From a candidate division Kazan bacterium RIFCSPHIGHO2_01_FULL_44_14 (GTDB taxonomy: Bacteria > Patescibacteriota > Kazan-3B-28): 64,000 nucleotides of DNA. Position numbers and translations under genes: made by a program. The notes under the pieces are model-generated. The model was given only the letters and a program-made list of their open reading frames with translations, made no database searches and was not told where the DNA came from. Of this stretch, positions 608 to 30,651 are shown piece by piece; the stretch's first letter is position 1, and each line of letters begins with the position of its first letter. The stretch lies in contig METB01000001.1 of the NCBI GenBank assembly GCA_001771185.1, forward strand, positions 310,848 through 374,847, written 5' to 3'.

Positions 608-2533
608 ATGTGGGGGAAAGTTTTGTGTTGGATAATAGTAACTGGACTCGGACTGGGTCTGGTTCAATTTGTGTCAGCGGAAGGAGAGAGTCCGAGCGTG
701 ATTATCAATGAAGTGGCGTGGGCAGGAAGTACAAAGTCCAATGACGATGAGTGGATTGAACTGAAAAATACCACTGATGCACCCGTGAATATTAGTGACT
801 GGAAAATTACCCGGGCCAATAGCATTACCGATGGTAATACCATCGCAACCTTCGGGGAAGGCGTTACGATCCCAAGTGGTGGGTTTTTGTTAATTAGCCA
901 CTTTAGCCAAGACGATCAGGACAATTCAGTACTTAATGCCGAAAGCGTTGTGGTAGAGGACAAGATGTTGTTGGCGGATAGCAATTTACGACTTCGATTG
1001 TGGCAACCAGGCATTGAAACGCGCATTGATGAATTAACTAATATTACTCAAAGCGGTTACGACAAAGAGAATAAAATTACTACTGAACGGACTTCGGATG
1101 TGACTGGCTGGCAAAGTAGCACCCGTGCTAATCACCCTAATTTCGATATTGGCGTAACCGACCTCGGTACACCCAGTGCTGAAAATTCCACCATCACCGA
1201 GCCACCAACACTCGCATCAATTACTCCCAACACAGTAACGCAAGGCGAAGCGCTGGAAGTCGAAAACATTGTCGGAACTAACTTCAGCACAGAATCACTA
1301 CCAACTTTACAACTGGTTCGGGGTAACCTCACTATCAACGGAACCGATATCAATGTTGTAAATAGTACGCTGATTGACCGCGCAGAATTTTCTACTGCCG
1401 GCGGTACGGAAGTAGGGATGTGGAATTTGACTCTGACTAACCCCGATGGCAAAATCGCAACCCTACCAAACGCAGTGGAGGTCTTAGCCCCCGAACCAGA
1501 ATTTGATTTAGGGACTACTGTTCGCATCAACGAAATTTATCCTCATCCAAATACAACCAGTAATGATGAATTTATCGAACTGTACAACTCGGGCGACCGA
1601 GCAATCAACTTACTTAGCTGGCGACTCGACGATATTCCTGAAGGCGGCTCAGCGCCATATACTTTTGAAAATGTAAATATCGGGGCCAAAGGGTTTTTGG
1701 TGATATACAAACCGCAAAGCAAATTAACATTGAATGACAATGGCGATTCGGTCTATTTAATCCAGCCCGATAATTTTGTATTGGACCAAGTTGATTATGA
1801 CAACGCTGGAATCGGTCAGACCTTGTCACGATTTACAAGTGGTTGGAAATGGACCACCACTCCCACACCCAACGGTGCTAATGTTTTGAGCGAACCCGTG
1901 GACGATACACAGCCCAACGAACCACCATTAGAACCGGACGATGAACCGATTACTCCAACCTACCAATCTAAGGATTTAGAACTAACCGAATTACTTCCCA
2001 ACCCAAACTCGTCCGACGAGTTTATTGAATTATTCAATCCCGGCACGAGTGCCATCAATTTGACCGATTGGCAACTAAAAGATGCTTCCGGTAAAAAATA
2101 TACAATTGGAGATTTTGAGGTGACCGTCCAAGCCAATGGTCTGCTCATCCAGCCACAGCAGTATGTGGTGATTACTCAAACCATGTCCAAAATTGCGTTA
2201 AATAATTCTGGCGGAGAGACGGTAACACTACTAGACCCTAGTGGGCAAATAGTCGACAGCGCGTCCTATCCCGACAAAGCACCAGTGGGTGCATCTTACG
2301 CATTGATAACGGCTGGACTTTGGACTTGGGTACCAACCCCAACTCCAGGGCAGGCCAACTTGGTTACACTATCCGAAGACATGCCCACTCCAACCATTGA
2401 AGTAGTATCTACTCTTCCTGACACATTACCGGTTACTGGTGGTTCGGCTCGACGCTGGCTAGGTGTGTTACTGGTAAGTTTTGCATTGGCAGGCGTGGTA
2501 TTCTGGGAACGCAGGAAGAAACTTTTGCATTAG
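608..2533 (+). CDS. LPXTG-anchored cell-surface protein with three lamin-tail-domain (LTD) repeats.
   Basis: There is an N-terminal signal peptide. Three LTD-like segments are present (INEVAWAGSTKSNDDEWIELKN..DWKI; INEIYPHPNTTSNDEFIELYN..SWRLDD; LTELLPNPNSSDEFIELFN..DWQLKD). The C-terminus reads LPVTGG, then a hydrophobic stretch, then an RRKK tail, which is a sortase sorting signal. Confidence 0.7.
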   Translation: MWGKVLCWIIVTGLGLGLVQFVSAEGESPSVIINEVAWAGSTKSNDDEWIELKNTTDAPVNISDWKITRANSITDGNTIATFGEGVTIPSGGFLLISHFSQDDQDNSVLNAESVVVEDKMLLADSNLRLRLWQPGIETRIDELTNITQSGYDKENKITTERTSDVTGWQSSTRANHPNFDIGVTDLGTPSAENSTITEPPTLASITPNTVTQGEALEVENIVGTNFSTESLPTLQLVRGNLTINGTDINVVNSTLIDRAEFSTAGGTEVGMWNLTLTNPDGKIATLPNAVEVLAPEPEFDLGTTVRINEIYPHPNTTSNDEFIELYNSGDRAINLLSWRLDDIPEGGSAPYTFENVNIGAKGFLVIYKPQSKLTLNDNGDSVYLIQPDNFVLDQVDYDNAGIGQTLSRFTSGWKWTTTPTPNGANVLSEPVDDTQPNEPPLEPDDEPITPTYQSKDLELTELLPNPNSSDEFIELFNPGTSAINLTDWQLKDASGKKYTIGDFEVTVQANGLLIQPQQYVVITQTMSKIALNNSGGETVTLLDPSGQIVDSASYPDKAPVGASYALITAGLWTWVPTPTPGQANLVTLSEDMPTPTIEVVSTLPDTLPVTGGSARRWLGVLLVSFALAGVVFWERRKKLLH

Positions 2534-2698
2534 ATTTCCAGTCATGCTGAACTTGTTTCAGCATCCAAATCCTGAATCCCCTCGGTACACTCGAGACATT
2601 GTAAATTCAGGATGACCGTGCAAAAGATAGTGAACAGTCCTCCTTCGTTCTGCTGGACAGCAGAACTACGGAAGGACCTACAGTGAAAAGTTATAGTT

Positions 2699-2809
2699 GT
2701 CATTCCGAGTGACCCCGAGTGTAGCCGAGGGGAATCGAGGAATCTAGTCCCGGCTAGCCGGGACGGCTCCGCCTAGATCCTTCGACTCGCTTCGCTCACT
2801 CAGGATGAC
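2699..2809. repeat. MITE-like palindromic element with GTCATTCCGAGTGA...TCACTCAGGATGAC terminal inverted repeats and an internal GTCCCGGCTAGCCGGGAC palindrome.
   Basis: The 14-bp inverted arms and the internal palindrome were read directly. Related arms occur at 3879-3919, 55623-55689, 58804-58814 and 63593-63647. Confidence 0.6.
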
Positions 2810-2878
2810 AAAAAGAAGGGCTGGATCAGGATGACAAAAAGGAGGACTTACTTAAGATGACAGAATAAAAGAATACCA

Positions 2879-3325
2879 ATGGAGATTAAAGTCACAACCA
2901 ACAATTTATCTGCCACCCAAACACTAGGGGAATTGATTGGCAAGAATTTAAAGGGCGATGAGACCTTCGCCCTGGTTGCTGAACTCGGTGGTGGCAAAAC
3001 CTCATTCACCCAAGGACTGGCTCGCGGGTTGGGTATCAAAAAAATTGTGATTAGTCCGACTTTTGTATTGGAGCGAATTTATAAAAGCCGACATCCGCTC
3101 CATCATTTCGACATGTATCGAATCGAGGCCAGCGATGCCGATTCGACTGGGCTGTTGGATATTTTGGGCGAAGCGGTCGTGGTAGTGGAGTGGGCCGAAA
3201 AAATAAAGTCGCAGTTGCCAGACGATACTATTTGGGTAACCATCAAAGTGATGGGGGAGAACGAACGAGAGTTTATATTTGAGTATCCTGAAAATCGAAA
3301 TTATGCCTTCAAAAATGTTAAGTAA
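2879..3325 (+). CDS. tsaE: tRNA threonylcarbamoyladenosine biosynthesis ATPase TsaE (YjeE).
   Basis: It has a P-loop (AELGGGKTSFTQGLARGLG) and SPTFVL, with length and architecture typical of YjeE/TsaE. It is immediately followed by tsaB. Confidence 0.75.
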   Translation: MEIKVTTNNLSATQTLGELIGKNLKGDETFALVAELGGGKTSFTQGLARGLGIKKIVISPTFVLERIYKSRHPLHHFDMYRIEASDADSTGLLDILGEAVVVVEWAEKIKSQLPDDTIWVTIKVMGENEREFIFEYPENRNYAFKNVK

Positions 3326-3980
3326 TATTTTAGGAATCGATACTAGCCACGATGAAACCGTTATTGGATTGAACGGCAAGATTGTGGCGTGGAAATCGGT
3401 TCGCAACCAGTCCAAAGAATTACTGCCAAAAATTGACAAACTGCTTTCACAGCAGAAAATCAAGCCGAATAAATTAAAAGGTGTAGTGGTAAACATTGGC
3501 CCTGGTTCGTTCACCGGACTTAGGGTCGGAGTAACAGTCGCCAATGGTTTTGGCTATGGTCTGAAAATTCCGGTGGTGGGAATTAGTGAGTTTGAAGCAA
3601 TAAAAACTTTCTATCCCAAAATAGACATTATTGTACTGGATGCCAAGCGGGGAGAGTTATTTATTCAGGCCAGGAAGTCAGCACCGAAATTAATCACTGC
3701 CGATAAACTTGGCGAGCTGATTAAAATCGGCACCCAAATTTATGTTGACGATTACCGACTCATTCCCATCATCCATGAGCAATTGAAAAAAGCCGGGACG
3801 ATTTACATCCCTGGCCTCACCCGCCAACAAAAAATGACAGCCATGATGGAGACAGCGGGTAAGCGGAATCAGAGATTCCTAGATCCTTCAACTCCGCTTC
3901 GCTCCACTCGGGATGACAATAAATTGTCAGTTTTGCCACTATATCTCCGTGGAGCCAATATCACACGAAAGAAAATCTAA
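3303..3980 (+). CDS. tsaB: tRNA threonylcarbamoyladenosine biosynthesis protein TsaB (YeaZ). The last ~30 codons derive from a repeat element.
   Basis: The N-terminus reads LGIDTSHDETVIGL...GPGSFTGLRVGVTVANGFGYG, the YeaZ/Kae1-family fold. Start chosen at the ATG at 3303 downstream of the tsaE overlap (an alternative ATG lies at 3315). Confidence 0.7.
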   Translation: MPSKMLSNILGIDTSHDETVIGLNGKIVAWKSVRNQSKELLPKIDKLLSQQKIKPNKLKGVVVNIGPGSFTGLRVGVTVANGFGYGLKIPVVGISEFEAIKTFYPKIDIIVLDAKRGELFIQARKSAPKLITADKLGELIKIGTQIYVDDYRLIPIIHEQLKKAGTIYIPGLTRQQKMTAMMETAGKRNQRFLDPSTPLRSTRDDNKLSVLPLYLRGANITRKKI

Positions 3981-4097
3981 CCAATCTAATCAATTTAATC
4001 CAATCTAATCAAAAATACGGACTGAGTCCTTCTCTGGATTGGTGAGATTGGTAGAGATTGAATAATTGGATAAATTACAGTTGCCTCGGGCAACTGT

Positions 4098-4388
4098 TTA
4101 AAATCCCATCAAAAACATCTTCTCGCCTTTGGCAAACCTTAATGCAGGCGAGGTTTCGAGAGCAGTATTACGGAAGTTTTCCGGACTATTTAAAATTGTT
4201 TGAGCGTAGTCGGTCGGGGAAATGACTGGAACGGGGGCTTGAACAACCACCGACGCCTCGGTTTTTTGTAACTGTCCATTAATCTCTTGACTAAACCACA
4301 CCACACTAGCTAATAAAATATAGCCGAGCACCAGTATCCCAAACATGCCGAGAGTTAAAAATCCAAAATGACGGCGAGAATGTTTCAT
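4098..4388 (-). CDS. Small membrane-anchored protein, translationally coupled (TAATG) to the upstream giant gene.
   Basis: There is an N-terminal TM helix (FGFLTLGMFGILVLGYILLASVVWF). Its start codon overlaps the stop of the 1485-aa ORF. Confidence 0.5.
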   Translation of the reverse strand: MKHSRRHFGFLTLGMFGILVLGYILLASVVWFSQEINGQLQKTEASVVVQAPVPVISPTDYAQTILNSPENFRNTALETSPALRFAKGEKMFLMGF

Positions 4389-7300
4389 TAGATTTTATTC
4401 AGTCCTTCTTTAACCATGTCCGACAAAGAGTTAATAAAATACTCCTGGTCATCAAAATAGAGCGATTTTTGAATATTGACACCTGGGACATTACCTGGGT
4501 AGGAATAATTTTTGCTGATTGCAAATGACACAAATCGGTCTGTCCGTCCACCAAGATAAACGACATTAAATTCAACTTTGGCATCATCGGCTGTTCCCGA
4601 CCAAACTAGGTCGAAATAGGATCGATTGTAAATATTATCAGTACCACCACTAGTCGCGGAAGTAACTTTTCCGTTTTGGCTAATTCGAACGCTGGTTGGA
4701 TTTAAATTCAGACCAAGTTGAACCGGAGGTAATTTTGGCCAACCCAATTTGGCCGACCGCTTGGCAGATTCAGTCGCTAAACTTAATGTCACATGTAATG
4801 ACTTGGCCGAACTGGTCGGCATCCGAGTTTGGCTAAACACCAAACTGCCGCTACCATATAAATTAGTCCCTTCGGCAGCATAACCACTTGAAAGCTGCTC
4901 GGAAGTTTTTGGTCGAGTGTCAGCAGAGGTTTGGTCGGCGTAATACAGCGAAATTTGTGAGGCCGGACTAACCGCACTTCCAGTTGCGCCGTTGATACTG
5001 ATTGACTCGAATCGATTAGGCCGTCCGCCAAGATAGACCACGGCATATTTTGCGCTGCCGACTACTAGCGGAAGATTGTGTTGCTGACTATATGTCCCGT
5101 CTGGATTTTGTTGGAAAATCAGCAAACCAGGGACAGCATATTGACCATTAGTGCCTCCAGTTACCAGCGGGGTTGCGTCACTAGGTAAGCCGTACTTGGG
5201 GACAATTACCTTTAGATCATTAATAATCTTAGTAATTTTTGGTTTATAGATGGTTTCATATTCATCGGCTGACACATATATATACAAGTTTTGTTTCTTT
5301 ACTGGCCCACTCCAAGGGTCTGCGGGGTCAGACTGTGTGCGCTCGATTCGCGAAGACCAAACCGAGAAGGTGGTTGGTGGATTTATCACGAGAGCAGGGT
5401 TAACTATTACTGAACTATTTGGATATGTCTCTGCCTCACGCAAAGTAATTGGTTTGATAAATGCCTGTCCACTACTGTCCACTACTTTAGCATCGATATA
5501 CACCGGCGTACCGTCAGTTGGAATGGAGTTAGCACTAGCACTAATCAGAATCTTATTGCCATAAGAGTCGGCTTTAACTGAATTAAGCGGTGCAATTTTG
5601 TCAGATAAAATTTCATTATTGGCACCGGGCTGTTGACCACTTGGCGTGGCTGGCTGACCGATCCCAGCAGATGGCGGAGTATAATCATTTCCGCTAATAC
5701 AAGCCATCTTATCGCCCCGTTTTACATCAGTGCTTTTGGTAAATTTCCAAGCGTCATAAAGTGAATCGAAATATGGGATTAATATATTGGCAGTATCGCC
5801 AGAGAATTCATCAATGTAGTCGTTGGCTTCTTGTTGGTTGATTTTGGATGCCGCCATCGTATCTAAAAACCCTTGCATAAAGGCCGAAGCGCCGAAGAAT
5901 GCTCCCCAAACACCAGTAAAAAGTGGTAAACCAAGAAAAACTGCCGGATTGGATATCATTGCCTGAATCACCGCCAATGAAGATCCACCCGCGATATCAG
6001 CATCAAGATCAATTGGCAGACCGTCTGGGCCAGTAGGTGCGCCGACCCAGATGCTAGGATCGGTTGCACCATATAATTTCCCGCGTCCACCCAAGAACAA
6101 GATACCGTCCTCCAATCTAGTCGCAGTGGCATAGACCGGAACCGGTTGATCACTGAGCGCCGGGACTTCACAATAACCATTCTGACTAAAATATTGATCA
6201 GTTTTCCCAGACAGTTGATTATATCTAGCCGCATAGGGGTTCAGGAGCCAATCCGGTAGGGGATTACCATTATGATCTACCTTGATTGTGGCAACTTTTA
6301 CTCCCGCTTTTTCTTCTTTAAAAATACCGGCCTTTCTGGCAGTGGCTGTCCATTGGAAAATAGACAGTGGCTCCCATGTATTTTCATCTAAGTCATAAAC
6401 GAACATCCCGTTATTTGGGCTAGTCAAAATATACTGGTTTTTCTCCCAGCGCGTACTGGTTGTAAGCGTACTCTGAAATGGCGTAGCGGCGGCGCTATAA
6501 GCATCTAACAATGTATTCGCATAAGAAAACAATCCAATTCGCGTCAACCGATCCCACAATGATAACCCCTTTTTAGTGGCCACGTCCTGTGTTTCTTGGT
6601 CAGACAAAGTTTTGTCTAGCTTATTTTCAAGCGTTTCCTTGAAGTCATCATGAAGTGGCCCAACTACAGCTGGCGTGTCCACTTTTTCCATTTGTCCAGT
6701 CACTACGTTATAAATATCAAACGGAGCGATATTATCATCTCGCCATTCCGAAACTATCTTCCTATCAATATTAGAGATGGATAACCATTCCAAAATAGTC
6801 GCTGGTCGGCCAATAATCGCTCCAATATCAGCATTTGATAAATGCTCCTCTTGTTTGAGATGCTGAATAAAGAAAAACCAATCAAGCTCATCAACCCTAG
6901 AGTAGAACTCTCCGCCAACCAAATAAACTTTTTGAGGTTGATTTTTGTTGTCATATTGAATCAACGGCACCATCCCTTGACCTCGAGGGTAGCGTAGTTC
7001 TCCTTGAGCAGTAAAGGTATCCTTAAATCCATCATAGATAACTACACTAGTCAGCTGTCCGCCAGTAAGCAAGACCTGACCATCGGTTAAAGGGACGGCC
7101 ACCAAATTAGCATCGGTACTGATTGGCTCTGACAATGGCTCAAACCGACCAGTTGTAAGATTAAGAATTTCTCCATCTTGTAAATAATAACTTTGTGATA
7201 AATAGCCAGGGCTACCACGCCAATCAGCAATCGCCTTAATAATGCGTTCTTTGATTGAACCGAGAAAGTTAGTTGGTTGGATTTTTCCCGAATCCGACCT

Positions 7301-8845
7301 CTCGTCGGTACTAAAATTAGGAAGATAGATCTGTTGCTTGTCATATGTAACACTAAATAGCCAACCGCCAAGTTTAACCCCAGAATAAGCCCCCGGCGGT
7401 CTAGTAAATGAGAATCGAGCATAGTTATACAACTCTCGAAGTTTGGTCAAGACATCGGGTGAAGTAGAAGTATTAGAATTCCCGTTGGTTGGACGTACTG
7501 AAGTCGGCGCGTCTTGACTGAGCGGCGCGCCAAAGGTATTCCCGTCAATATTAATAACGTTTGTGTCGGGAGTGCTTGAGGTAGTTCCGCCACGGCGTTT
7601 CACGAATTCCATCGTCCGTACCGTGCGATTGCCCCAAGAAATTTGGACATCAATGCCGATAGCATTGCGAAACTCGAAATCCTCATCTCCGGCTATCCCA
7701 ATGTAATAGGTGTAACTAAATGGATAACTCGGATAGAGAGTAGCTTCAACTTGATATGTCCGCCCTAAAATATCACGCTGTTCAACGTTTGACAAATCCT
7801 GTTCTACGAAAGTCCCGCTGGTCAGCCGCAAAAATCGTCCACCCCCCTGGATAGTCAACGTCATGTGAGCACGAGCCGGAGGCGCTAACCCTTCCACTTC
7901 TGGAGTAGAGACCTTTACTCGCAAAGCAGCTCTCTCACCAACTCCAATTGTTCGCGGAGATACACTTGTTTCCACTTCGATAATCCCATCGCCGGTGGTT
8001 TTTTGTTGAAGGAAGTTGTAAGAAGGAGCTGCGCCAGAAAAATGTTGAGTCATTGTGCTATCAGGCTGTTCAGGATCATGACTCCAAAACGATTCTGTTT
8101 CGCCACCTAAAATTAGAACCTTGTCAGTCCCTGGAACTAAAACTGCTTGATGTCCCTTCCTGCCCGTGAACATATTGGCCAGATATCCAGATCTAATATC
8201 GTCGCCATCATAAACTCCGGTATTTTTAAAATAATCTTTCAACCAAACAAACTTGCGTTCTTTGACCATGAATACTTCGCCTGTATAAGTATTCTCATGG
8301 AGCAACCCTAAGCCCCATACTGCCTTAAACGGTATCGGGCTATCTGTCACTATTTCACCACCCAAAAGTAAAACATTCCCATCCGGCAGAAGTGTGGCGG
8401 TGTGAAATGCTCGCGGTAGGCGCATATTATCAGTTGGCGTAACAAACTCGTCTTCAGGAGTGTAGATGAACGCGTGAGAAGTAGCCCTACCTTTAGATTC
8501 TATCCCGCCAGCAATTAATACCCGACCATCTCGCAGAGTAGTGGCAGTATGCCCGTATTTTTTGTGTGTTCCCAAATAATCTTGCAACTCGCCAGCTTCA
8601 TGGGGGACAGCTGCTTCTCCGGTAAGAGCTTGCTGTGACTTCTCAGATAGAGTAACTTGACCTTCACTATAAACTAAAAATCTGCCAGGATAATCATCCC
8701 CGCGCCAACCGGCCCCGACTCGTTTAAGTGAATAATTGGTGCTAAATTCCCCGACCGTATCGGCCAACGCCGGCAACGGCGAACTACCACAGAGGACTGC
8801 GATGGTTATAAGCCAGAGAATTATTTTTTGTGTTTGTTTTTGCAT
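4388..8845 (-). CDS. Giant secreted protein (1485 aa) with Kelch/beta-propeller-like repeats.
   Basis: It has a signal peptide (MQKQTQKIILWLITIAVLCGSSPLPALA). It contains repeated Kelch-like motifs: GHTATTLRDGRVLIAGG, FHTATLLPDGNVLLLGG, GHQAVLVPGTDKVLILGG, VPLTDGQVLLTGG and TRLEDGILFLGG. It is one long uninterrupted ORF. Confidence 0.65.
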   Translation of the reverse strand: MQKQTQKIILWLITIAVLCGSSPLPALADTVGEFSTNYSLKRVGAGWRGDDYPGRFLVYSEGQVTLSEKSQQALTGEAAVPHEAGELQDYLGTHKKYGHTATTLRDGRVLIAGGIESKGRATSHAFIYTPEDEFVTPTDNMRLPRAFHTATLLPDGNVLLLGGEIVTDSPIPFKAVWGLGLLHENTYTGEVFMVKERKFVWLKDYFKNTGVYDGDDIRSGYLANMFTGRKGHQAVLVPGTDKVLILGGETESFWSHDPEQPDSTMTQHFSGAAPSYNFLQQKTTGDGIIEVETSVSPRTIGVGERAALRVKVSTPEVEGLAPPARAHMTLTIQGGGRFLRLTSGTFVEQDLSNVEQRDILGRTYQVEATLYPSYPFSYTYYIGIAGDEDFEFRNAIGIDVQISWGNRTVRTMEFVKRRGGTTSSTPDTNVINIDGNTFGAPLSQDAPTSVRPTNGNSNTSTSPDVLTKLRELYNYARFSFTRPPGAYSGVKLGGWLFSVTYDKQQIYLPNFSTDERSDSGKIQPTNFLGSIKERIIKAIADWRGSPGYLSQSYYLQDGEILNLTTGRFEPLSEPISTDANLVAVPLTDGQVLLTGGQLTSVVIYDGFKDTFTAQGELRYPRGQGMVPLIQYDNKNQPQKVYLVGGEFYSRVDELDWFFFIQHLKQEEHLSNADIGAIIGRPATILEWLSISNIDRKIVSEWRDDNIAPFDIYNVVTGQMEKVDTPAVVGPLHDDFKETLENKLDKTLSDQETQDVATKKGLSLWDRLTRIGLFSYANTLLDAYSAAATPFQSTLTTSTRWEKNQYILTSPNNGMFVYDLDENTWEPLSIFQWTATARKAGIFKEEKAGVKVATIKVDHNGNPLPDWLLNPYAARYNQLSGKTDQYFSQNGYCEVPALSDQPVPVYATATRLEDGILFLGGRGKLYGATDPSIWVGAPTGPDGLPIDLDADIAGGSSLAVIQAMISNPAVFLGLPLFTGVWGAFFGASAFMQGFLDTMAASKINQQEANDYIDEFSGDTANILIPYFDSLYDAWKFTKSTDVKRGDKMACISGNDYTPPSAGIGQPATPSGQQPGANNEILSDKIAPLNSVKADSYGNKILISASANSIPTDGTPVYIDAKVVDSSGQAFIKPITLREAETYPNSSVIVNPALVINPPTTFSVWSSRIERTQSDPADPWSGPVKKQNLYIYVSADEYETIYKPKITKIINDLKVIVPKYGLPSDATPLVTGGTNGQYAVPGLLIFQQNPDGTYSQQHNLPLVVGSAKYAVVYLGGRPNRFESISINGATGSAVSPASQISLYYADQTSADTRPKTSEQLSSGYAAEGTNLYGSGSLVFSQTRMPTSSAKSLHVTLSLATESAKRSAKLGWPKLPPVQLGLNLNPTSVRISQNGKVTSATSGGTDNIYNRSYFDLVWSGTADDAKVEFNVVYLGGRTDRFVSFAISKNYSYPGNVPGVNIQKSLYFDDQEYFINSLSDMVKEGLNKI

Positions 8846-8859
8846 GTTGGAAAAAGTGT

Positions 8860-11800
8860 TTAAGGTGCGCCGGCTGGTTTATCGACACCCCATCCCCAGT
8901 TCCAGTTTAGGAACGAAAAGTCGAGCGAATCAACTTTAGTATCACCATTAAAATCGCCGAAAACCGGAGTGCGTGCAAACTCTAGATTAAAGACCGAGAA
9001 ATCGAGAGAGTCGATACGGTTATCGTGGGTTAGATTAATGTCACCAATCTTAGCAATTAACATTGTCAGATTGATTGGACTAACTGTAGAACCACCAAAA
9101 GTGGTGGCTACCGCCAAATGATTGGTGGCCTTCACCCAGACATCATAAATTTTATTAGTCGAAACCGAGATTTGTGGCAAACCAACAATTTGATTACTGC
9201 TATTAATTTTGAACCAGTTATTAATTAATGGGGTAGTGTCATTTTTGCCAATCACAATTACCAGCACCTTATTTTGAGTGAGGTAATCATAACGGTTGCC
9301 TTCGACTGGCGCGATGATATTCAGGGTCTTAGTTGTACCGCTTACTGGCTTCCTCTCAATCACCTCTCCATTAAGAGTGCCTGCGGTCGAAATTGTACCT
9401 ATACCCGCAATGAGCGCACTAGCATCAACCCTGGTCTGACCCTCGCCGTCGGCAACTTGAGTCCAATAGGTAGCAGTATCAGTTCCATTGGAACCAATTA
9501 GAAGTGTGGTTTTATTCAAGTTACCAAGACCAGTTAATATGAGTGTGACTATTTGGTTAGTACGAGGGGTATTGTCAGCGTTTTTTAAAGTTACCGTAAT
9601 CGTGGACCAATGTTGGCTACTGTTCAAATCAATGGTGGTCGGGTTGGCCTCAACTTTAAAAATCAAGTTATGAACAACCACTATTTTGACAATTGTAACA
9701 GTAGCCGAAATTGGCGCACCGCTTCGGCTGGTGCTACTGGCAGTAATCCGAACTTCAACGGCAAGATTATCGACTGTGTAGGTTGAGGTGGCAACACCAT
9801 TAGGGTCACTAGTTGTGTCTGTTGCCGGAGCAAGACCACCAGTAGTCAGATTCTTGGCAAAGTTTACTGTTACGTTGGGACGCCGAGTAATCACACCAGT
9901 AGTATTGTTTATCCAACCAACTACAGCAGTAAGATCGGAGGTCTGCTGGTTGTCTGGTACCAGTTGGGTTGGGTTGGCCTGGAGACCAATAAAGTCACTG
10001 TCGGCAACTTGAACCAGAAAATCGTGATCGCCCAACTTGGTGGCTATTTCCTCACTGTCACCCCCCACAATGGTATGGACGCTTACATCCCACCAACCCG
10101 GTGTGGCGTTGGCGGAAATAACAACCGTGGCTCGTAGGTTCTGGGTGCCATCAGGATTATTAGTTACACTCACAGTTGTGGCTGTCACCCCTTGGTTGTC
10201 GCCGATATCTGTATTTTCGTCATTCGGCTCGAAAATGACAGAAGAATGATTGGTCAACCAGTTGGTATTTTGGCCGACTAAGTCCACGATATATTGTTTG
10301 TTTCGCTCACCTCGGTCGGAAGTGATCGACGTAATATAGGCCAAATTGCTAGCCCCTTGAGGCAAAACTTCAAAATAACGAGGAGTGTAATCGGGAGTGG
10401 CTAACCATTCCAAAGCTTGGCCGTCTTGGACCACGCTAACTCGCCACATCCCCAAAGTCGCACTGGTGCCAATATCAATCGTAAACCGCAAATCATTACC
10501 AACCTTTTGAATATTTTCAACGGTAACCCCATTGTCCCTGAGCAGATACTTTTCGATCGAAACTCCATCACCCAAGAATTTATTACCAGGATTAATCGTG
10601 GCATATGCTATGGTCTCTTCAAAACCGGTTGGCTGGACTGCCGTAAACTCAGTCTGGGCTTGCCCATTGGCATCAGTATAGCGCGGATTTAAGACGGCAC
10701 TACCATTATCGGTAATGAAATTCACTAATTGGTCTGGAACTGGACTATCGTCACTCAAACTTAACCTAGCAGTCATTCTGATTGGGACAACCGGGGGCTG
10801 CAAATTGACGGTAACGGCCTCGGATGTGAGATCGAGATTATAAAACCGCAAAGTTGGGTCATTTTCAACAACCGCTATCTTGACCGGAGCAATGCCTTGG
10901 GCGCTGGCTTCGATATAAGTTACTCCAGCCGAGGTACCCGTCTGGTAACTCGTTGTAACCAAACCGTCTTTAGCAATCACCAAACTGTCCCGCAATTGTC
11001 CGTTGGTCATATGCCCTTGAACGACATCGCGAATTAATCGGAATGAAACCGGCAAATTGTCGGCTGGATTTCCGTTAGAATCAACTAGGTTCAAAACAAT
11101 CGGTTGAGGAGTTTGCCCATCGGCCTTGAGAGTTGTAACCCACGGTAATTTGTATGTAAATTGACCTTGAGTCGGTTCAAATTGAACTTCAGCATTGGCG
11201 TTGAGTGCAACACCAGCTCCCTGTAAGGTAACTTGCAAATCAGTGGAGCCCTGGACTCCGCTGACCGGGATAACATTAGTGAGATAGGGGATAAAGTGAA
11301 CTGTGACGGAATCGAGAGACAGCCCCGACCCCGCTCCCACTAACAGGTTAGCATCTCCGGATTGAGTTGATTTGATTGCCACCTTTGCGGTACCCTGGTC
11401 GTCAGATTGAATTGTAATTGAGGTGGCGGTTTGTTCGACAATTGGATAACCGGCTACCGCCTCAAAAATATCTTCGCGGGGAGCTTCACCCAATTTGACC
11501 GGCCCCTTAAAAATAGTGACTGGCAGATTCAACATTGGGGTGTCCTCGGCGCTAAACACCTGGGTCGAAATAATCCCACTATCTTGGCCGTCAGCATAAA
11601 CTGTATCATCTGGTAACACTATCGTTTCGGCTTTGCTTGGTTGATTAAATGCCCCGACAAATAGCGGACCGATATATTCAGCGGCTTTGAAAGTGGTAGG
11701 AGGAGTGCTAGAAACTTTACCATCATTAGCAACGGTATTAACCCACTTACCTGAACCGCCGGTCACATAGAGGGAAATAATTGTGCCAATTTTTTCGCCT

Positions 11801-14226
11801 TGCGAATTAAACTTATCAATTTTTACTCCAGCGCTAGCAGTAAACAACAAATTGGTGGACTGTGGCGAAGTGAACCGGAAATCGGCTCCAGACACAAATG
11901 GCCACATCCAACCTTGAATTGGTTCGTCTGGTTTGGGAGGATAAGCATCCTGATTTAAAACTCGAGTATAAGCCGTCGGCAAATCCTGCCAGTGAGACGG
12001 ATAGTGAAACTTCCCAAGTTGTTGGGTCGGCAATTTATATCCGCCAGCTACAATCGACTTTCCTTCGCTACCGTCTGGCAAACTGGCACCAACCGAATAA
12101 GAACCAAACCGGTAGTTGTCATTCAGCAACGCGCCGTCCGAACGCGCGTCGCTGATACTGGCCAAGCCGCCCGGTTCATCCAGTTGCCAACCAGCCGCCG
12201 ACACGGTAAATTTCTGTGACAAATTAGCGCTCAATGGAATTGGATTAGCGACATTGTACGGAGTCGCGTTATAAAGTCCACCGGACAAATAAATTTCAGT
12301 ATCAGAAGTGGAGGTAGCAGTCGGCATGAACAAACCACCACGAGCACCTTGAGAAGATTTTAACGGAATCGATTCAGCCCCAATCAACGAGGAACTAACC
12401 GTTGCCCAAGAGGTACCTCCAGAATGGGGTAGCAGTTTTAATGTCGAGTGGCCAACAAAATCATAACTGGGAGTCCCACTAACGGGATTATCGGCAGGAT
12501 GGCTAACGCCATCATCCAATACCCAAAACGGAGAGAGGGAAGTATTGGTCTCCGGACCAACACTACCAAAACTGGCTCCACCAAATATATAAATATGATA
12601 GCCAGGTGCACTGTCAGGCCCTTTGATTAAGACGATTTGGTGCCCATAGCGACCTTGGGCTACGGGCACGATATTCGTCACTGTATGAGCGGGAGCGGGT
12701 AGTATTATTTCTTTAAAATCAATAAATACTCGCAGTTGACCGATTTTAATCACTCGATTTGAAAGCCACTGATTAGCGTAGAGATAGGGATTTGTAGTCA
12801 GTTCACCAAACTCCCATGAGCTTGGGTTACTTGAAACGGTAGAAAAATTGAGTCGGATATGGGTCTCGACTGTGGTAACAAAAGCCCCACTTTTAACTTG
12901 GTCGAAATAAAGTTGAGAATAATCTGGACCAGCCGGAATGCTTCCGACTTGAGCCAGAACCGGTTTAGTTACCGACGACCAGCGTTGGACAAGTTTTTGA
13001 ACCCAACCGATAGTAGTGACCCCTTCAGGAGCAGTAGTGGTAGTACTACCCTCGGGTGTGACAGTGGTGTTAGTGTCTGGCGTAACAATAGTAGTGTCTG
13101 GTGAAACAATGGCTCCAGGATAACTGTCTCGGTCGTGCGGGTCATATCCCAGAAAAATCTCAATCCAGTCGGCCACCCCATCGCCGTCGCTATCAAGCGG
13201 ATCGTTTTTAATTTTGCCTAAGTATTCTGGCAAGCCGTAAAGATTGTTGGTCGAGCCAGTTGGATAATTGGTAATTGTACTGCCACTAGTTACCGGATCG
13301 GTCATGGTTAGCCCTCCGCCAGCAAAAAGATATAACGGATGATAGCCAACAATTGGTTTAGTCCCTAGGTTGTTGTCACCCCAAAAATCTGGGTCAAAAT
13401 TTGGGTCCATCAAATTACTCGGTCCAACCGGCGATAGAATCGGTTGACCATTAGCCAGACCACCAGGTGCCTGTTGCCACATATTGCCAAACACACCACC
13501 AGTGATGTGGATATACCCCCAATCAGCTGGATAAATCCCACCACCTTGCGGTCTCAAACTCGGACTATCTGTCACTAATACTTCTGGTAAATAATGGACA
13601 TCAGTGATTGAAGCCACCACTTCCCAATTATTTGGACTATGCAAATTAAGCCGTTCGATTGTGGAGTAAACCCCGCTTTCCACGCCCGAAACTGGTAATC
13701 CATTTTGATCAAGTATAATCGGGGCGATATGCATATCACCAACGATGGCATATAAGTAGTCCTGGTAACCATCCTTGTCGGTGTCCACCGCTACCAACCG
13801 ACCGGCGGCGCGAGGGGACTTCATTGAAGCAGAATACTGCCAATTACCACTGGCTGGTTGGCCGGATTCATCTAATTCCAAATATTCAACACTCGACAAG
13901 GCATTCCAAGTCCCACTAGTTTCGTTTAGTCCACCTACCACCCACAACCGTCTTTGGATAGTAGCCCCTGTCTTGACCTGGGCGTACACCATTGAATGAT
14001 GTTGCCGTGTAGTCGACATGGCTGGAACATTTTTCCAATTCAAATCATCCTGATAACCAGTCACTTCGGCCTTGGAGCCAAACAGTCGGAGGAGAAAATC
14101 CAGTTGAGAGAAAAATAGTACTGCAACGATGACGGCAGATACGCTAATGGCGCCGATAGCAAATCGGCGACGATTACCGGGGACGCCCAACCAGGTTGTG
14201 AACCGTTGCCACGGATATAGAGTCAT
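8860..14226 (-). CDS. Giant surface protein (1788 aa) with an N-terminal signal-anchor, Kelch-like repeats, a thrombospondin-type-3-like Ca-binding motif, Ig-like repeats and a C-terminal dockerin-like pair.
   Basis: The N-terminal TM is FAIGAISVSAVIVAVLFF. Kelch-like GG motifs are present. It carries DPLDSDGDGVADWIEIFLGYDPHDRD. The C-terminus has DINLTHDNRIDSLDFSVF and DFNGDTKVDSLDFSFL, which match dockerin-type Ca-binding repeats. Confidence 0.65.
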   Translation of the reverse strand: MTLYPWQRFTTWLGVPGNRRRFAIGAISVSAVIVAVLFFSQLDFLLRLFGSKAEVTGYQDDLNWKNVPAMSTTRQHHSMVYAQVKTGATIQRRLWVVGGLNETSGTWNALSSVEYLELDESGQPASGNWQYSASMKSPRAAGRLVAVDTDKDGYQDYLYAIVGDMHIAPIILDQNGLPVSGVESGVYSTIERLNLHSPNNWEVVASITDVHYLPEVLVTDSPSLRPQGGGIYPADWGYIHITGGVFGNMWQQAPGGLANGQPILSPVGPSNLMDPNFDPDFWGDNNLGTKPIVGYHPLYLFAGGGLTMTDPVTSGSTITNYPTGSTNNLYGLPEYLGKIKNDPLDSDGDGVADWIEIFLGYDPHDRDSYPGAIVSPDTTIVTPDTNTTVTPEGSTTTTAPEGVTTIGWVQKLVQRWSSVTKPVLAQVGSIPAGPDYSQLYFDQVKSGAFVTTVETHIRLNFSTVSSNPSSWEFGELTTNPYLYANQWLSNRVIKIGQLRVFIDFKEIILPAPAHTVTNIVPVAQGRYGHQIVLIKGPDSAPGYHIYIFGGASFGSVGPETNTSLSPFWVLDDGVSHPADNPVSGTPSYDFVGHSTLKLLPHSGGTSWATVSSSLIGAESIPLKSSQGARGGLFMPTATSTSDTEIYLSGGLYNATPYNVANPIPLSANLSQKFTVSAAGWQLDEPGGLASISDARSDGALLNDNYRFGSYSVGASLPDGSEGKSIVAGGYKLPTQQLGKFHYPSHWQDLPTAYTRVLNQDAYPPKPDEPIQGWMWPFVSGADFRFTSPQSTNLLFTASAGVKIDKFNSQGEKIGTIISLYVTGGSGKWVNTVANDGKVSSTPPTTFKAAEYIGPLFVGAFNQPSKAETIVLPDDTVYADGQDSGIISTQVFSAEDTPMLNLPVTIFKGPVKLGEAPREDIFEAVAGYPIVEQTATSITIQSDDQGTAKVAIKSTQSGDANLLVGAGSGLSLDSVTVHFIPYLTNVIPVSGVQGSTDLQVTLQGAGVALNANAEVQFEPTQGQFTYKLPWVTTLKADGQTPQPIVLNLVDSNGNPADNLPVSFRLIRDVVQGHMTNGQLRDSLVIAKDGLVTTSYQTGTSAGVTYIEASAQGIAPVKIAVVENDPTLRFYNLDLTSEAVTVNLQPPVVPIRMTARLSLSDDSPVPDQLVNFITDNGSAVLNPRYTDANGQAQTEFTAVQPTGFEETIAYATINPGNKFLGDGVSIEKYLLRDNGVTVENIQKVGNDLRFTIDIGTSATLGMWRVSVVQDGQALEWLATPDYTPRYFEVLPQGASNLAYITSITSDRGERNKQYIVDLVGQNTNWLTNHSSVIFEPNDENTDIGDNQGVTATTVSVTNNPDGTQNLRATVVISANATPGWWDVSVHTIVGGDSEEIATKLGDHDFLVQVADSDFIGLQANPTQLVPDNQQTSDLTAVVGWINNTTGVITRRPNVTVNFAKNLTTGGLAPATDTTSDPNGVATSTYTVDNLAVEVRITASSTSRSGAPISATVTIVKIVVVHNLIFKVEANPTTIDLNSSQHWSTITVTLKNADNTPRTNQIVTLILTGLGNLNKTTLLIGSNGTDTATYWTQVADGEGQTRVDASALIAGIGTISTAGTLNGEVIERKPVSGTTKTLNIIAPVEGNRYDYLTQNKVLVIVIGKNDTTPLINNWFKINSSNQIVGLPQISVSTNKIYDVWVKATNHLAVATTFGGSTVSPINLTMLIAKIGDINLTHDNRIDSLDFSVFNLEFARTPVFGDFNGDTKVDSLDFSFLNWNWGWGVDKPAGAP

Positions 14227-14316
14227 TTTGTTTTTCTTTACTCCTATGAGAAACCTCCGAACGATTATTTCATTATACTATAATTGTCCCAAAAAGTCAA
14301 GCCCTAAGTCAAGGAC

Positions 14317-15354
14317 CTATTCTATCCCCAGGTCTTCTAAGGATGAACCCCCAGTTAAGTCACCGGAACCATCCTCGTCTCGGCCGGCCAGATAATAGCC
14401 GGTAATGGCTTCCTGGATGTAATCTTCGTCCGCAACGGTAAAGGCCAACGGAGTATCAAACTGGGCGGTTAATCCGCCGGTGTTTTCGGGTGAAGGGTCG
14501 GCAATCGCTACGGTAATCGCTTCAGCTGAACGAGCAATCGGAATTGCCGTGAACTTAGTGGCGATTTCGTACGGCATCGTTCTCACCACGGCTGGATCGA
14601 TTTCATAACGAGACAAATCAAGCGATGGAACATGATACTGGCTACCCAAAGCTCGCACCAAATCTTCACGAGAAATAAGTTGTTTGTTCAACAAAACTCG
14701 TCCCAACCGCTGACCAGTTTGGTGCTGTTCCTGGAGAGCCAAATTCAAATCGCCCGGAGCGATGATATTTTGATTGACCAAAATTTCACCAAGCCGTTGG
14801 ACTGGTCGAGCTGAATGGGGTCCGGATTCTTCAGCTAATGGAACTCGACTGCGTTCGCTATAACTGGTAATTAAATCGGCGATATCTCTAGCACCGGGAA
14901 TCGACCGCAATTCAAAGAAGCCCTCCTTGCCAGCGGACTGAACCGTGATGTTGCCGAACCGAAAAATTGAAGATAACACTCCCTGCATTGTTACCCTAAC
15001 ATCTTGAACTTGGTCCATATTCATTTGCGATACTCGACGATTGAACAAACTAATCAATTGGATATCGATTAGCCGCTCTGGCAAAATAATCCAAACATCC
15101 ATATACCAGAAAATCCACTGCATCATAAAAAAATTGACAACGAACAGCACATACAGTCCACCAAATAGCCAAAGACCAATCTCAACCTCCGATTGGTCTG
15201 CGAATCCCAATGCGTTGATGGCGATTAAAAATATCAGCAAGGGCACCAGCATCAACACCGACCAGCCCAATGGGACTAATAAGTCCACACTATGACGGCG
15301 AAGGGTGAGCGGGGGGGCGGCGTGTGATTGATGGTTGGGGATTTGTTCAATCAT
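14317..15354 (-). CDS. Membrane protein with an N-terminal bPH (YdbS/YdbT-like) domain fused to a GspE_N/MshEN-like domain with two tandem 24-residue motifs; candidate c-di-GMP receptor.
   Basis: Two TM helices flank a PH-like segment. It then carries RLGEILVNQNIIAPGDLNLALQEQ and RLGRVLLNKQLISREDLVRALGSQ. Both fit the MshEN pattern RLGxx[LIV][LIV]xxG[LIV][LIV]xxxx[LIV]xxx[LIV]xxQ, and the second matches exactly apart from the glycine-10 position (Q there). The start overlaps the stop of the upstream 64-aa ORF (ATGA). Confidence 0.55.
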   Translation of the reverse strand: MIEQIPNHQSHAAPPLTLRRHSVDLLVPLGWSVLMLVPLLIFLIAINALGFADQSEVEIGLWLFGGLYVLFVVNFFMMQWIFWYMDVWIILPERLIDIQLISLFNRRVSQMNMDQVQDVRVTMQGVLSSIFRFGNITVQSAGKEGFFELRSIPGARDIADLITSYSERSRVPLAEESGPHSARPVQRLGEILVNQNIIAPGDLNLALQEQHQTGQRLGRVLLNKQLISREDLVRALGSQYHVPSLDLSRYEIDPAVVRTMPYEIATKFTAIPIARSAEAITVAIADPSPENTGGLTAQFDTPLAFTVADEDYIQEAITGYYLAGRDEDGSGDLTGGSSLEDLGIE

Positions 15355-15545
15355 AGTTGAGAAGCAATAATTGCCGCCGAGATTGAACCAATAATAACGC
15401 CCAGTGCGACCAGCAAATAAACACTCATTGCGAGATAGGCGTTATCATTCGGCAACCGAAATCGGAAAATATGAAAAATATTGATGGCGGCATAACCCGC
15501 CCCAAATAACAGAAGCACCGCATAGATAATTATCATGGTTGTCAT
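15351..15545 (-). CDS. Small two-TM membrane protein (64 aa).
   Basis: It has two hydrophobic helices and is translationally coupled on both sides (ATGA overlaps with ruvB and the downstream gene). Confidence 0.45.
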
Positions 15546-16558
15546 GAAACAAAAAGTTTTGGTTTATAACTGGCCAATCTAAGATGGTCATAGGTCTTGT
15601 CGGTGGCTATCCGTCCCTGGGCAGTTCTCTGCAAAAAACCCTCCTGAATTAAATATGGTTCATAGACATCTTCAATGGTCTGACGCTCCTCGGAGATAGC
15701 GGCGGCCAACGAACTTAACCCGGCCGGACCACCCTTAAATTGAGTCACCAGCGTCCGAAGGATTTTGCGGTCAACTTCATCAAGACCTAATTTGTCGATT
15801 GTGAGCAAATTTAAGGTGTCTTGAACCACAACCGAATTAATCACCCCGCTATTTTTAACTAGGGCATAATCACGCACCCGTTTCAAAATCCGATTGGCCG
15901 TCCGAGGGGTACGGCGAGAGGACCGAGCGATTAGTTCGGCTTCTGGCTTGGGAAGGTCAACTTGTAAAATTCGGGCTGAACGCCGAAGAATTTTTTCAAT
16001 ATCCTCAACTTCATAAAAATCCAACCGATAAGTAGCGCCGAACCGATCTCGCAGGGGAGAGGAAAGTAAACCAACCCGAGTAGTGGCACCAATCAGTGTA
16101 AATTTCGGCAAATCCAATTTCAGCGAACGAGCCGAGGGACCTTTGCCAACAATAATGTCTAGACAATAGTCCTCCATCGCCGAATACAACACTTCCTCTA
16201 CTGGTCGACCGAGCCGATGGATTTCATCAATAAATAAAATATCGTTGTCTTGGAGATTGGTAAGAATGGCGGCCACATCACCAGCTCGCTCAATTGCCGG
16301 ACCAGAGGTGGCTCTAAGTCCCACTCCCATTTCGTGGGCGATGATATGAGCTAGAGTGGTCTTACCTAACCCCGGCGGACCGAATAGCAAGACATGGTCT
16401 AACGGCTCACCTCGTTGTTTCGCGGCTTGAATAGCAATCGTTAAACCGGCCTTGGCATTGTTTTGGCCAACATAGCCGGCAAAATCGTGCGGACGCAGGT
16501 GGGTGTCTAGTTCGTTATCTTCCCCTTCCGCCCTTGGATCAATAATTCTTGAGTTCAT
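15542..16558 (-). CDS. ruvB: Holliday junction branch migration helicase RuvB.
   Basis: It has Walker A ([18 protein letters not shown]), Walker B ([10 protein letters not shown]), and the RuvB C-terminal winged helix. Confidence 0.9.
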
Positions 16559-20379: not shown

Positions 20380-20628
20380 ATGCACTACACCTATGTTCTA
20401 CAATCAAAACTAGACGGACATCTCTATGTGGGATGTACTGCTAACTTGATGGCTCGTATAGAGACGCACAACTCTGGTGCGGTATCGTCTACCCGTTCGC
20501 GTAGACCCTTAGAACTGGTGTATTATGAGGCATGTTTGTCTGAAAAGCTGGCACATACTCGGGAACAACAATTAAAAACAGGGTTTGGTCGAGCTTATTT
20601 AAAGAGACGTCTTGGGTCCGTAGCTTAG
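20380..20628 (+). CDS. GIY-YIG domain protein (UPF0213/YhbQ-like small nuclease).
   Basis: It reads YTYVLQSKLDGHLYVGCTANLMARIETHN...RPLELVYYE...REQQLK, a GIY-YIG core of the right length. Its last codons and stop lie inside the tRNA-Lys gene. Confidence 0.7.
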   Translation: MHYTYVLQSKLDGHLYVGCTANLMARIETHNSGAVSSTRSRRPLELVYYEACLSEKLAHTREQQLKTGFGRAYLKRRLGSVA

Positions 20629-20687
20629 TGGTAAAGCAGTTGCCTTTTAAGCAATTGATGCAGGTCCGATTCCTGCCGGACCCACCA
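20614..20687 (+). tRNA. tRNA-Lys (anticodon TTT).
   Basis: The cloverleaf was read by eye: acceptor GGGTCCG/CGGACCC, D-arm GCTTAGTGGTAAAGC, anticodon loop CTTTTAA, T-arm CAGGTCCGATTCCTG, and an encoded CCA. A terminator hairpin follows. Confidence 0.8.
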
Positions 20688-20787: not shown

Positions 20788-21702
20788 CTACATCGTTGGT
20801 TGCCAGTGGGCTAATTTGTCCAACAAATTTTGCCGATCAAGTTCCTCGGCAACACTAGGCGGATTAACTTTGATCCGCTCATTTTGACTGGTCAAACCAA
20901 AGTCGAGCATAAATGAAATGGGAACCCCTTCAATCAAGTAAATATCAGTCACTTTAATCCGAGCCAATTGGAAAGTGCGTTTGTTAATCCAAACATCTGC
21001 TGTGTAAGTAGTCAGCGAGTCCAACCCAGTCGGAACAGGGGAACCGGTAATTTGGCTAATCCGAGTAAGCAAAGATCGCAGATTATCGCCCTGGAGTTTG
21101 CCTTGATAATGATATGACCGTTGACCAAAAGCGGTTTCGTCTGGGAATGTCTGGGTCGCTTCCAATAAAGTTGAATCGGCGATTACATCATGGATCATTA
21201 ATGATTGCTCGGAGGTCAGCCCGCCTGATGTCGGCAAAGTGCCTAATTTATTGCCGTCACTGTCCAAACTAGGTTGTTTGATCCGATACCAACGGCTGTC
21301 AGCGCCAAGTGATATTGGTAGCAAAGTCGGAAGATCTAAGTCGGTTAATTTGAAATAAGTGTAGTCGGACAACCCGATCAATTGACCAGTTAATTTAATA
21401 TTGCCCTGATCAGAGGTGGCCTGGACATCGGCCTGCAAAGAAAATTGAGGAGTGGCTGGATCCTCATTAATCACATCCCCAGTCAAATGAAGTTGCGCAC
21501 TAGTAATTCTCCCGCCTAAAGCACTTGGAAGATTACCGGTTAAATTAAGCGTGGCATCGTAATGAAAACTCTGCAGGTCGGATGACGCTTGAGTGAACCG
21601 CTGGATTACTTCATCGGCGCTCAAGGTCTTAATCGAACAACCAGATAATAGCAATCCAACTGTTAGTATTAACGCCCCCAATTGTCGTCCTGGTCTAGTC
21701 AT
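20788..21702 (-). CDS. Hypothetical lipoprotein.
   Basis: It has a lipobox (LLLSGC) after a signal peptide and no recognisable catalytic motif. Confidence 0.5.
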   Translation of the reverse strand: MTRPGRQLGALILTVGLLLSGCSIKTLSADEVIQRFTQASSDLQSFHYDATLNLTGNLPSALGGRITSAQLHLTGDVINEDPATPQFSLQADVQATSDQGNIKLTGQLIGLSDYTYFKLTDLDLPTLLPISLGADSRWYRIKQPSLDSDGNKLGTLPTSGGLTSEQSLMIHDVIADSTLLEATQTFPDETAFGQRSYHYQGKLQGDNLRSLLTRISQITGSPVPTGLDSLTTYTADVWINKRTFQLARIKVTDIYLIEGVPISFMLDFGLTSQNERIKVNPPSVAEELDRQNLLDKLAHWQPTM

Positions 21703-30645: not shown

Positions 30646-30651
30646 ACGAAG

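Follow-up and report, generated by a model that had tools for sequence, protein, structure and literature searches.

Three adjacent genes on the minus strand of a 64-kb stretch of DNA (the window) from candidate division Kazan bacterium RIFCSPHIGHO2_01_FULL_44_14, which belongs to the candidate phyla radiation (CPR), appear to constitute a Kazan-specific operon for a calcium-dependent cell-surface attachment structure, a reading that is given a probability of roughly 0.55. The genes, here called A, B and C, encode a predicted membrane-anchored giant surface protein of 1788 amino acids (aa) (A, P0001; 8860-14226), a predicted secreted giant Kelch-propeller protein of 1485 aa (B; 4388-8845) and a predicted bitopic mini-protein of 96 aa (C; 4098-4388). 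The structure of the genes, the conserved trio, the identities of the domains, the pattern of conservation and the narrow distribution are established.

The bacterium that carries the locus is ultra-small and probably host-dependent. Little is known of the ways in which members of the CPR attach to their hosts and exploit them, and a role has been assigned to few of their surface proteins. The locus is a small, well-defined candidate in this respect, being a conserved three-gene unit with what would be a docking module at the far end of an anchored stalk.

Gene structure and operon signals

The three open reading frames (ORFs) had been described in an earlier reading of this DNA made without database searches (the sequence-only reading), and the same coordinates and lengths on the minus strand were recovered here. 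ORFs as long as A and B cannot have arisen by chance, and A is a 100% match to the deposited hypothetical protein A3K24_01610 of the Kazan bacterium. It had also been envisaged that the ORFs might prove to be fragmented; those in the window are intact. The A ortholog is in three pieces in DPXF01000008, where comparison with the intact CP011216-type copy reveals a small gap at one place and four Ns within the stretch compared, and this split is therefore not taken as fragmentation of the ORFs.

A and B are spaced 14 nucleotides (nt) apart, and the junction of B and C reads TAATG, in which the TAA of B and the ATG of C share 1 base. Inside the 90-nt gap upstream of A there is a promoter-like site, TTGACT-17 nt-TATAAT (14272-14300, minus strand), which is a consensus match only, at 11/12 positions; it has the top score in a promoter scan of 3800-15600, a region in which the total count of promoter-like sites does not exceed the shuffled expectation. 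Beginning 2 nt past the stop codon of C is a perfect 8-bp hairpin, CAGTTGCC-CGA-GGCAACTG (4078-4096, minus strand), which is a possible operon terminator. The T-tail of this hairpin is weak, which is why it is missing from the terminator-scan list. With the upstream promoter-like site, the 14-nt gap, the 1-nt overlap and the hairpin after C, A-B-C looks like one operon-like unit.

A foreign origin of the locus was considered and dropped, as its guanine plus cytosine content, 0.44-0.48, is that of the rest of the window. Misassembly driven by repeats was likewise dropped, there being one 40-nt tandem repeat in the whole locus.

Conservation and distribution of the trio

The trio and its gene order were found in three further contig sets besides the window. 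In the complete Kazan genome CP011216, and in the draft LCQY01, the proteins are A2 (1765 aa), B2 (1471 aa) and C2 (100 aa). A is 39%, B 52% and C 69% identical to the respective CP011216 ortholog. The ENA contig L004 carries an A homolog (37% identity) that runs off the end of the contig, with the trio kept as far as the contig reaches, and the ENA contig L007 (k141_929193) carries a C-terminal fragment of A together with homologs of B (1881 aa) and C (98 aa). A full-length ortholog of B, P0008, shares 52% identity with it, and P0007, with 937 aa and 99% identity, is B in truncated form.

An exhaustive HMMER scan of 1.84 billion representative proteins with the last 446 residues of B returned only P0009, which is the L007 homolog, a fragment of B2 and a distant protein of 425 aa, along with two further repeat-protein matches that were judged spurious; the region is thus present in no more than about 3-5 of the proteins scanned. 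In a scan of 185,579 species genomes the only matches were to CP011216 and to a 3-kb contig labelled Saccharibacteria, and a metagenome scan with C found two loci only, a CP011216-type Kazan contig and an unassigned 1.9-kb contig. On CAYOXG010000057.1 (L006), which is labelled Saccharibacteria, positions 699-3077 encode at least 792 aa of a distant B-like protein that has Kelch-like GG motifs and one copy of the C-terminal module of B, at 36% identity. This would suggest that the tail module of B may, rarely, be present outside the Kazan lineage.

The dockerin module of A

The C-terminus of A (aa 1726-1780; 8887-9051, minus strand) consists of two EF-hand-like loop-helix segments and is the only dockerin module in the window. 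Dockerin-like repeats had been proposed here from the sequence, and profile searches with the isolated module bear this out. The isolated 65-aa module of A scores 26.7 bits on Dockerin_1 (PF00404; E=6.6e-6) and the isolated module of A2 scores 24.4 bits, both of them exceeding the Pfam cut-off of 22.9, and Dockerin_1 is the only Pfam family that the two modules match. A profile of three orthologous modules gave 12 matches in the PDB at E<=1, every one a dockerin or an enzyme that bears one, with 2vn5_B ranking first (E=2.7e-4), and the top matches of a single-sequence PDB search with the A module are likewise dockerins. A homolog search with the last 169 aa of A returned no matches.

Canonical segments of this kind are ~22 residues long and consist of a 12-residue calcium loop, of pattern D-x-[ND]-x-[DN]-x-x-x-[DN]-x-x-D, and a helix. 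The second loop is canonical in the alignment of three orthologs (DFNGDTKVDSLD, DFNHNTFVDALD and DFNGDKDVNSLD). The helices share a repeated motif, (I/V)(D/N)(S/A)LDF, in which Ser has become Ala in both repeats of the CP011216 ortholog. The dockerin is 62-65% identical to that of the ortholog, compared with a mean of 40% for A; indeed, the dockerin and the N-terminal anchor are the two most conserved parts of the protein.

Anchor, Kelch-like propeller region and stalk of A

The first 19 residues of A end in RRR, of which RR is invariant among the orthologs, and these are followed by a hydrophobic helix with the conserved SQLDFLLRLFG (aa 20-51; 14074-14169, minus strand; hydropathy 2.47). The anchor is near-invariant in the alignment of three orthologs, and over aa 1-60 the identity to the ortholog is 70-75% in 40-aa windows, as against the mean for the whole protein. 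This conservation favours a signal-anchor that stays in place over a signal peptide that is cleaved off, and thus agrees with the uncleaved N-terminal signal-anchor proposed in the sequence-only reading. That the invariant RR might be part of a twin-arginine translocation motif was considered; this is unlikely for a multi-domain calcium-binding protein of 1788 aa, and a positive-inside anchor is the simpler explanation.

Next to the anchor is a Kelch-like propeller region with long insertions (aa ~60-880; 11587-14049, minus strand). About seven GG-doublet blade motifs are readable in A, as they are in B, which would suggest a propeller of about seven blades. The matches of A to Kelch_1, Kelch_2, Kelch_3, Kelch_4 and Kelch_6 of Pfam are weak and all sub-threshold (E 0.0015-0.6); the A ortholog has Kelch and β-propeller matches in the corresponding region.

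Within the propeller region lies a single, degenerate calcium-binding repeat of the thrombospondin type 3 (TSP3) kind, LDSDGDGVADWIEIFLGYDPHDRD (aa 343-366; 13129-13200, minus strand), where P0006 is 57% identical. Of the TSP3-like motif reported earlier, DSDGDGVAD is present (aa 345-353), but the segment of A by itself has no Pfam match at E<=10. At the aligned position, the orthologs A2 and A3 have two TSP3_bac (PF18884) repeats that pass (~2e-11; 43.9 and 44.1 bits, cut-off 25), and A therefore keeps one degenerate copy. The place of the orthologs' second TSP3 repeat is occupied in A by a Thr-rich linker encoded by a 21-nt tandem repeat of 1.9 copies (13071-13110, minus strand), as seen from Tandem Repeats Finder and the ortholog alignment.

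The immunoglobulin (Ig)-like stalk of A (aa 1038-1616; 9379-11115, minus strand) contains at least four Big_1-type domains, with other β-rich modules in between. An iterated hidden Markov model domain map places four at aa 1038-1120, 1153-1226, 1420-1514 and 1530-1616. A matches Pfam Big_1 (PF02369) in four stretches, at 1.5e-12 and 47.9 bits, which is above the cut-off of 34.9; A3 scores 70.5 bits on Big_1 and A2 scores 48.3 bits on Invasin_D3 (PF09134). The Ig-like domains are Big_1 and not Big_2, the profile that had been suggested for the search, and both they and the Kelch-like blades of A go beyond what was described earlier. A β-rich module of about 95 aa lies just before the dockerin-like module. 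Paralogy of A and B was considered and dropped, hhalign finding one common Kelch motif at Prob 0.8%.

The predicted secreted protein B

B starts with a Sec-type signal peptide (aa 1-28; 8762-8845, minus strand), made up of MQKQTQK, a hydrophobic core and LPALA/DT, which is apparent from sequence and hydropathy and is conserved in B2. Cleavage is predicted at LPALA/DT because of the AxA rule. Both the cleavable signal peptide and the lack of an anchor of its own had been proposed for B, and a terminal anchor is indeed absent by sequence and hydropathy. A and B thus both look extracytoplasmic, with targeting signals that differ, a signal-anchor in one and a cleavable peptide in the other. No sortase (LPXTG), lipobox, S-layer homology (SLH) or pilin-type signals are visible in the sequences of A, B and C.

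The top-scoring Kelch blades of B are at aa 98-164 (8354-8554, minus strand; Kelch_4, 6.8e-16). On this family B scores 58.4 bits (cut-off 21.6) in two stretches, with weaker blades besides, and a profile of the B family matches only Kelch/galactose-oxidase and other β-propeller chains in the PDB (3e-7), so that the Kelch repeats first read from the sequence of B are confirmed. Other blades, all on the minus strand, are suggested by GG motifs and weak Kelch matches at about aa 229-283, 575-660, 800-830 and 900-935. The blades are set apart by large insertions, and there is a conserved β-rich insertion of about 135 aa, without a family match, at aa 286-420.

Since the closest solved relatives of B are the Kelch domains of copper radical oxidase and galactose oxidase, it might be asked whether these proteins are enzymes rather than adhesins, B being a copper radical oxidase akin to galactose oxidase, or a protein that brings degradative activities to bear on the polymers of the host envelope. 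A weak NCBIfam match to GlxA in B and the S8 peptidase domain of one B homolog would fit with this. However, the alignment to the oxidases is limited to about two blades (B aa ~98-177) and the catalytic-site region is unmatched, the match to GlxA reaches 15.8 bits where the cut-off is 800, and neither B nor B2 has an S8 domain, all of which makes an enzymatic role highly improbable.

The homolog with the S8 domain is P0009 (L007 396-6041, 1881 aa). It begins with the same MQKQTQKIILWL as B, which is followed by a longer hydrophobic segment and the S8 peptidase domain, and then by a propeller and tail of the B type; a C homolog follows the gene. A Rosetta-stone link between B and the S8 peptidase that is encoded near the trio was rejected, as the S8 domain of P0009 is only 27% identical to the one in the window and is not its ortholog.

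Between the propeller and the tail of B is an internal Gly-rich hydrophobic segment, LAVIQAMISNPAVFLGLPLFTGVWGAFFGASAFMQGFL (aa 957-990; 5876-5977, minus strand), with a borderline Kyte-Doolittle mean of 1.65. The second half of this segment is kept as hydrophobic and Gly-rich in B2 and P0009, and the segment might form a buried helix or interact with a membrane.

The C-terminal region of B (aa 1075-1485; 4391-5623, minus strand) is β-rich and lineage-restricted and contains an internal duplication, in which YLGGRxxRF ... SLY[FY]xDQ is present twice. An AlphaFold2 model of the region, made from four sequences, is mostly β, with a mean predicted local distance difference test (pLDDT) value of 59. 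The Foldseek matches of the model, at low TM-scores of 0.15-0.2, are adhesin and matrix domains of the tandem Ig-like kind, namely AgI/II, RbmA, integrin, complement and the N-terminus of PAD4. Its adhesin-type fold neighbours, with tandem Ig-like and β-sandwich domains, also include invasin, intimin and S-layer proteins.

Large, β-rich, exported proteins such as A and B might instead serve the envelope of their own cell, as structural or S-layer-like proteins, and take no part in attachment to another cell. The S-layer matches are generic Ig-like ones, however, and SLH or other wall-binding domains are absent from both proteins in Pfam and NCBIfam. An essential envelope layer would also be expected lineage-wide, and these genes are present in a handful of genomes only. 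An envelope role is therefore considered improbable.

The mini-protein C

C has a basic N-terminus, a transmembrane (TM) segment at aa 7-34 (hydropathy 2.27) and an external tail of about 60 residues, and it has no family match in Pfam or NCBIfam. It is the most conserved of the trio, at 69-88% identity between genomes (CP011216, L007), and its last 40 residues are near-invariant in three genomes. The overlap of B and C is kept in the two relatives CP011216 and L007, and the TAATG junction indicates that C is translationally coupled to B. The earlier description of B as followed by a co-translated TM mini-protein is thus upheld, with B-C coupling in at least two further loci of the Kazan lineage.

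The conservation of C and the retention of the overlap with B are also what would be expected if the invariant tail of C were to tether B, leaving the dockerin of A to target a protein or glycan on the host-cell surface, or else a cohesin-like protein from another part of the genome. C persists in L007 despite the hydrophobic segment and S8 domain gained by the B homolog there, which would fit with such tethering, as would the lack of a cohesin signal in B. A contact between B and C is purely conjectural, however, the part of C that would make it is ~60 residues long, and the search for a partner covered 64 kb of a roughly 700-kb genome. Tethering of B by C is equally economical as an explanation, and it is possible, albeit at clearly less than even odds.

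Search for a cohesin partner

The sequence-only reading had seen in A and B a membrane-tethered scaffold and its partner, perhaps a cohesin-dockerin-like assembly, with a cohesin-like fold to be sought in B or C. None was detected there by Pfam, hhalign, PDB profiles or the Foldseek top 50. Pfam Cohesin (PF00963) has no match in A, B and C at E<=1 and none in seven segments of B at E<=10, and the comparison by hhalign of the B family with the verified CipA cohesin-2 (1ANU) gave Prob 0.2%. Profiles of the A and B families found no cohesin in the PDB, phmmer with cohesin-2 found nothing among the ORFs of the window in any frame, and there is no cohesin in the Foldseek top 50 for the C-terminal model of B. 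C cannot hold a cohesin because its ~60 extracellular residues are too few, a cohesin being roughly 140 aa. Within the 64 kb searched, there is no sign of a cellulosome-type system: the locus has no cohesin, glycoside hydrolase or carbohydrate-binding-module domains, and the window has a single dockerin.

These searches bear on the two-component, non-cellulosomal assembly that was first proposed, in which the distal dockerin of A binds a divergent cohesin-like β-sandwich in B. The dockerin is genuine, conserved and carried by an anchored protein, B has no terminal anchor, and the adjacency of A and B is conserved, all of which would suit such a pairing. So would the presence of the same (I/V)(D/N)(S/A)LDF motif in both dockerin helices, which resembles the type I dockerins that have a symmetric dual-binding mode. 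The cohesin signal is, however, absent in every one of the searches, and C is already a dedicated, translationally coupled candidate for the membrane partner of B. In addition, dockerin-like modules apart from cellulosomes are said to have been described already, by Peer et al. in 2009 (as cited in PMC10066038). That the dockerin of A binds B is therefore judged unlikely.

More doubtful still is that the orphan β-sandwich region of B, or its insertion at aa 286-420, represents a new, highly divergent cohesin-like family, which would make A-B-C a minimal non-cellulosomal dockerin-cohesin display system of the CPR. Were this so, the Ig-like stalk in the membrane would hold a secreted propeller 'head' by docking, and the host cell would be bound in this way, with C as a second tether or as an assembly factor.

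A proposed model for a surface structure

Under the preferred reading of the locus as an attachment operon, A would be inserted N-in through its uncleaved signal-anchor and would present, from the membrane outward, the Kelch-like propeller with its putative TSP3 calcium site, a stalk of Big_1/invasin-type and other β-sandwich domains, and the dockerin at the distal end as a conserved protein-docking module. B, exported by way of its cleavable Sec signal peptide, would combine a Kelch propeller that carries insertions with an orphan tail of tandem β-sandwiches, and C would be a small bitopic membrane protein produced in step with B. B may be kept at the surface non-covalently, by the invariant tail of C, by the dockerin of A, or by both, and the propellers and Ig-like arrays would then touch another cell or a polymer. 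The topology, the calcium binding, all of the protein-protein contacts and the adhesion role are predictions of this scheme. It, the pairing of A with B and the tethering of B by C are not mutually exclusive.

Several observations weigh against the attachment operon. Dockerin_1 is sub-threshold in full-length A (12.4 bits) and full-length A2 (14.2 bits), and also in the fragment of the third ortholog, in L007 (16.5 bits). The first dockerin loop is non-canonical, with an insertion of 2-3 residues (for example DINLTHDNRIDSLD), and the single-sequence AlphaFold2 model of the module has a pLDDT of 34.6, such that the dockerin fold and its calcium sites are predictions from the sequence. The contacts between A, B and C are likewise hypothetical, and no ligand-binding site was identified. 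The flanking genes are equally syntenic in these close relatives, and gene order alone is therefore no proof of a functional unit. The related loci number only three to five, which is too few for co-variation analysis.

If the partner of the dockerin were to be found, whether this is B, another surface protein or a component of the host, there would be a testable handle on attachment in Kazan bacteria, and dockerin-based assembly would be extended beyond polysaccharide degradation.

Comparison with known systems

Non-cellulosomal dockerins, Kelch propellers and Big_1 stalks on the large surface proteins of reduced genomes are already known. What is new at this locus is a lineage-restricted, adhesin-like operon with two orphan components, the tail of B and C.

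In an epibiotic Saccharibacterium, an envelope protein with a dockerin domain is essential (PMC10633639), and surface giants with dockerin and TSP3 domains in the Omnitrophota have been interpreted as adhesins (10.1101/2023.11.21.568195, PMC10066038). Like SEML1_0315 of Southlakia epibionticum and the 'Dockerin-type' giants of the Omnitrophota, A is a large predicted extracellular protein of a reduced genome, with Dockerin_1 and TSP3-type modules, no cellulolytic enzymes and a proposed role in adhesion. Unlike these, A is 1788 aa long and N-terminally anchored with one C-terminal dockerin, rather than having dozens of repeats in at least 30,000 aa, and its gene is accompanied by those of a secreted Kelch protein and a translationally coupled mini membrane protein.

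With the type I cellulosomal dockerins, such as those of C. cellulolyticum Cel5A (2vn5_B) and C. thermocellum CelS (1daq), the module of A shares two tandem loop-helix segments and the canonical DFNGDTKVDSLD. It differs from them in the insertion in its first loop and in its carrier, which is an anchored Ig-like stalk and not a glycoside hydrolase; in contrast to the type I systems, no scaffoldin or cohesin was found in the window. The tail of B is like the cohesins of the C. perfringens toxin complexes (2vo8, 2w1n) only as a generic β-sandwich, in a model of pLDDT 59, and unlike those pairs there is no sequence similarity and B has no glycoside hydrolase.

Invasin and intimin have an outer-membrane β-barrel anchor and a C-type-lectin-like end, where A has a single N-terminal helix and a dockerin end. 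B resembles the bacterial Kelch-repeat surface proteins, P0072 included, in being a secreted multi-blade propeller with Ig-like or adhesion modules; P0072 combines Kelch and Dockerin_1 in one protein, outside this trio. In contrast to those proteins, the blade insertions of B are unique to the lineage, and its 410-aa tail and its partner C are almost without relatives.

Flanking genes and other features of the window

Most neighbours of the trio are housekeeping genes, and a few encode secreted or membrane proteins. One flank encodes a membrane protein with bPH_2 and MshEN domains, RuvB, a small multidrug exporter, UppP/BacA and a secreted S8 peptidase, and the other encodes TsaB, TsaE and a protein with three Lamin Tail Domains. 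The last of these (608-2533, plus strand; 641 aa; E=1e-52) is beside TsaE/TsaB in CP011216 too.

Directly upstream of A, on the same strand, is the bPH_2/MshEN gene (14317-15354, minus strand), which encodes 345 aa with two TM-like N-terminal stretches, a bacterial PH domain (bPH_2) and a C-terminal MshEN. MshEN is a module that binds c-di-GMP in the ATPases of type II secretion and type IV pili. The gene is in the same position in three genomes, as is the whole neighbourhood. Between it and RuvB is a 64-aa ORF (15351-15545, minus strand) that has the same place and length in CP011216 and L004 and no family match.

The S8 peptidase is a secreted subtilase of 742 aa (17866-20094, minus strand) with Big_1/Invasin_D3-like and NBR1-type Ig-like domains, and its gene shares the strand of A and lies upstream of it, five genes away. 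It is probably another surface or secreted protein.

Two further ORFs, of 538 aa (32845-34461, minus strand) and 304 aa (20788-21702, minus strand), have no Pfam match at E<=1e-4. Nothing in the window besides tRNAs reaches the Rfam gathering score. Six tRNA genes (Glu, Lys, Arg, His, Arg and Gly) lie inside 1.8 kb at 30182-31920 on the minus strand, and a lone tRNA-Lys(UUU) is present at 20614-20687 on the plus strand.

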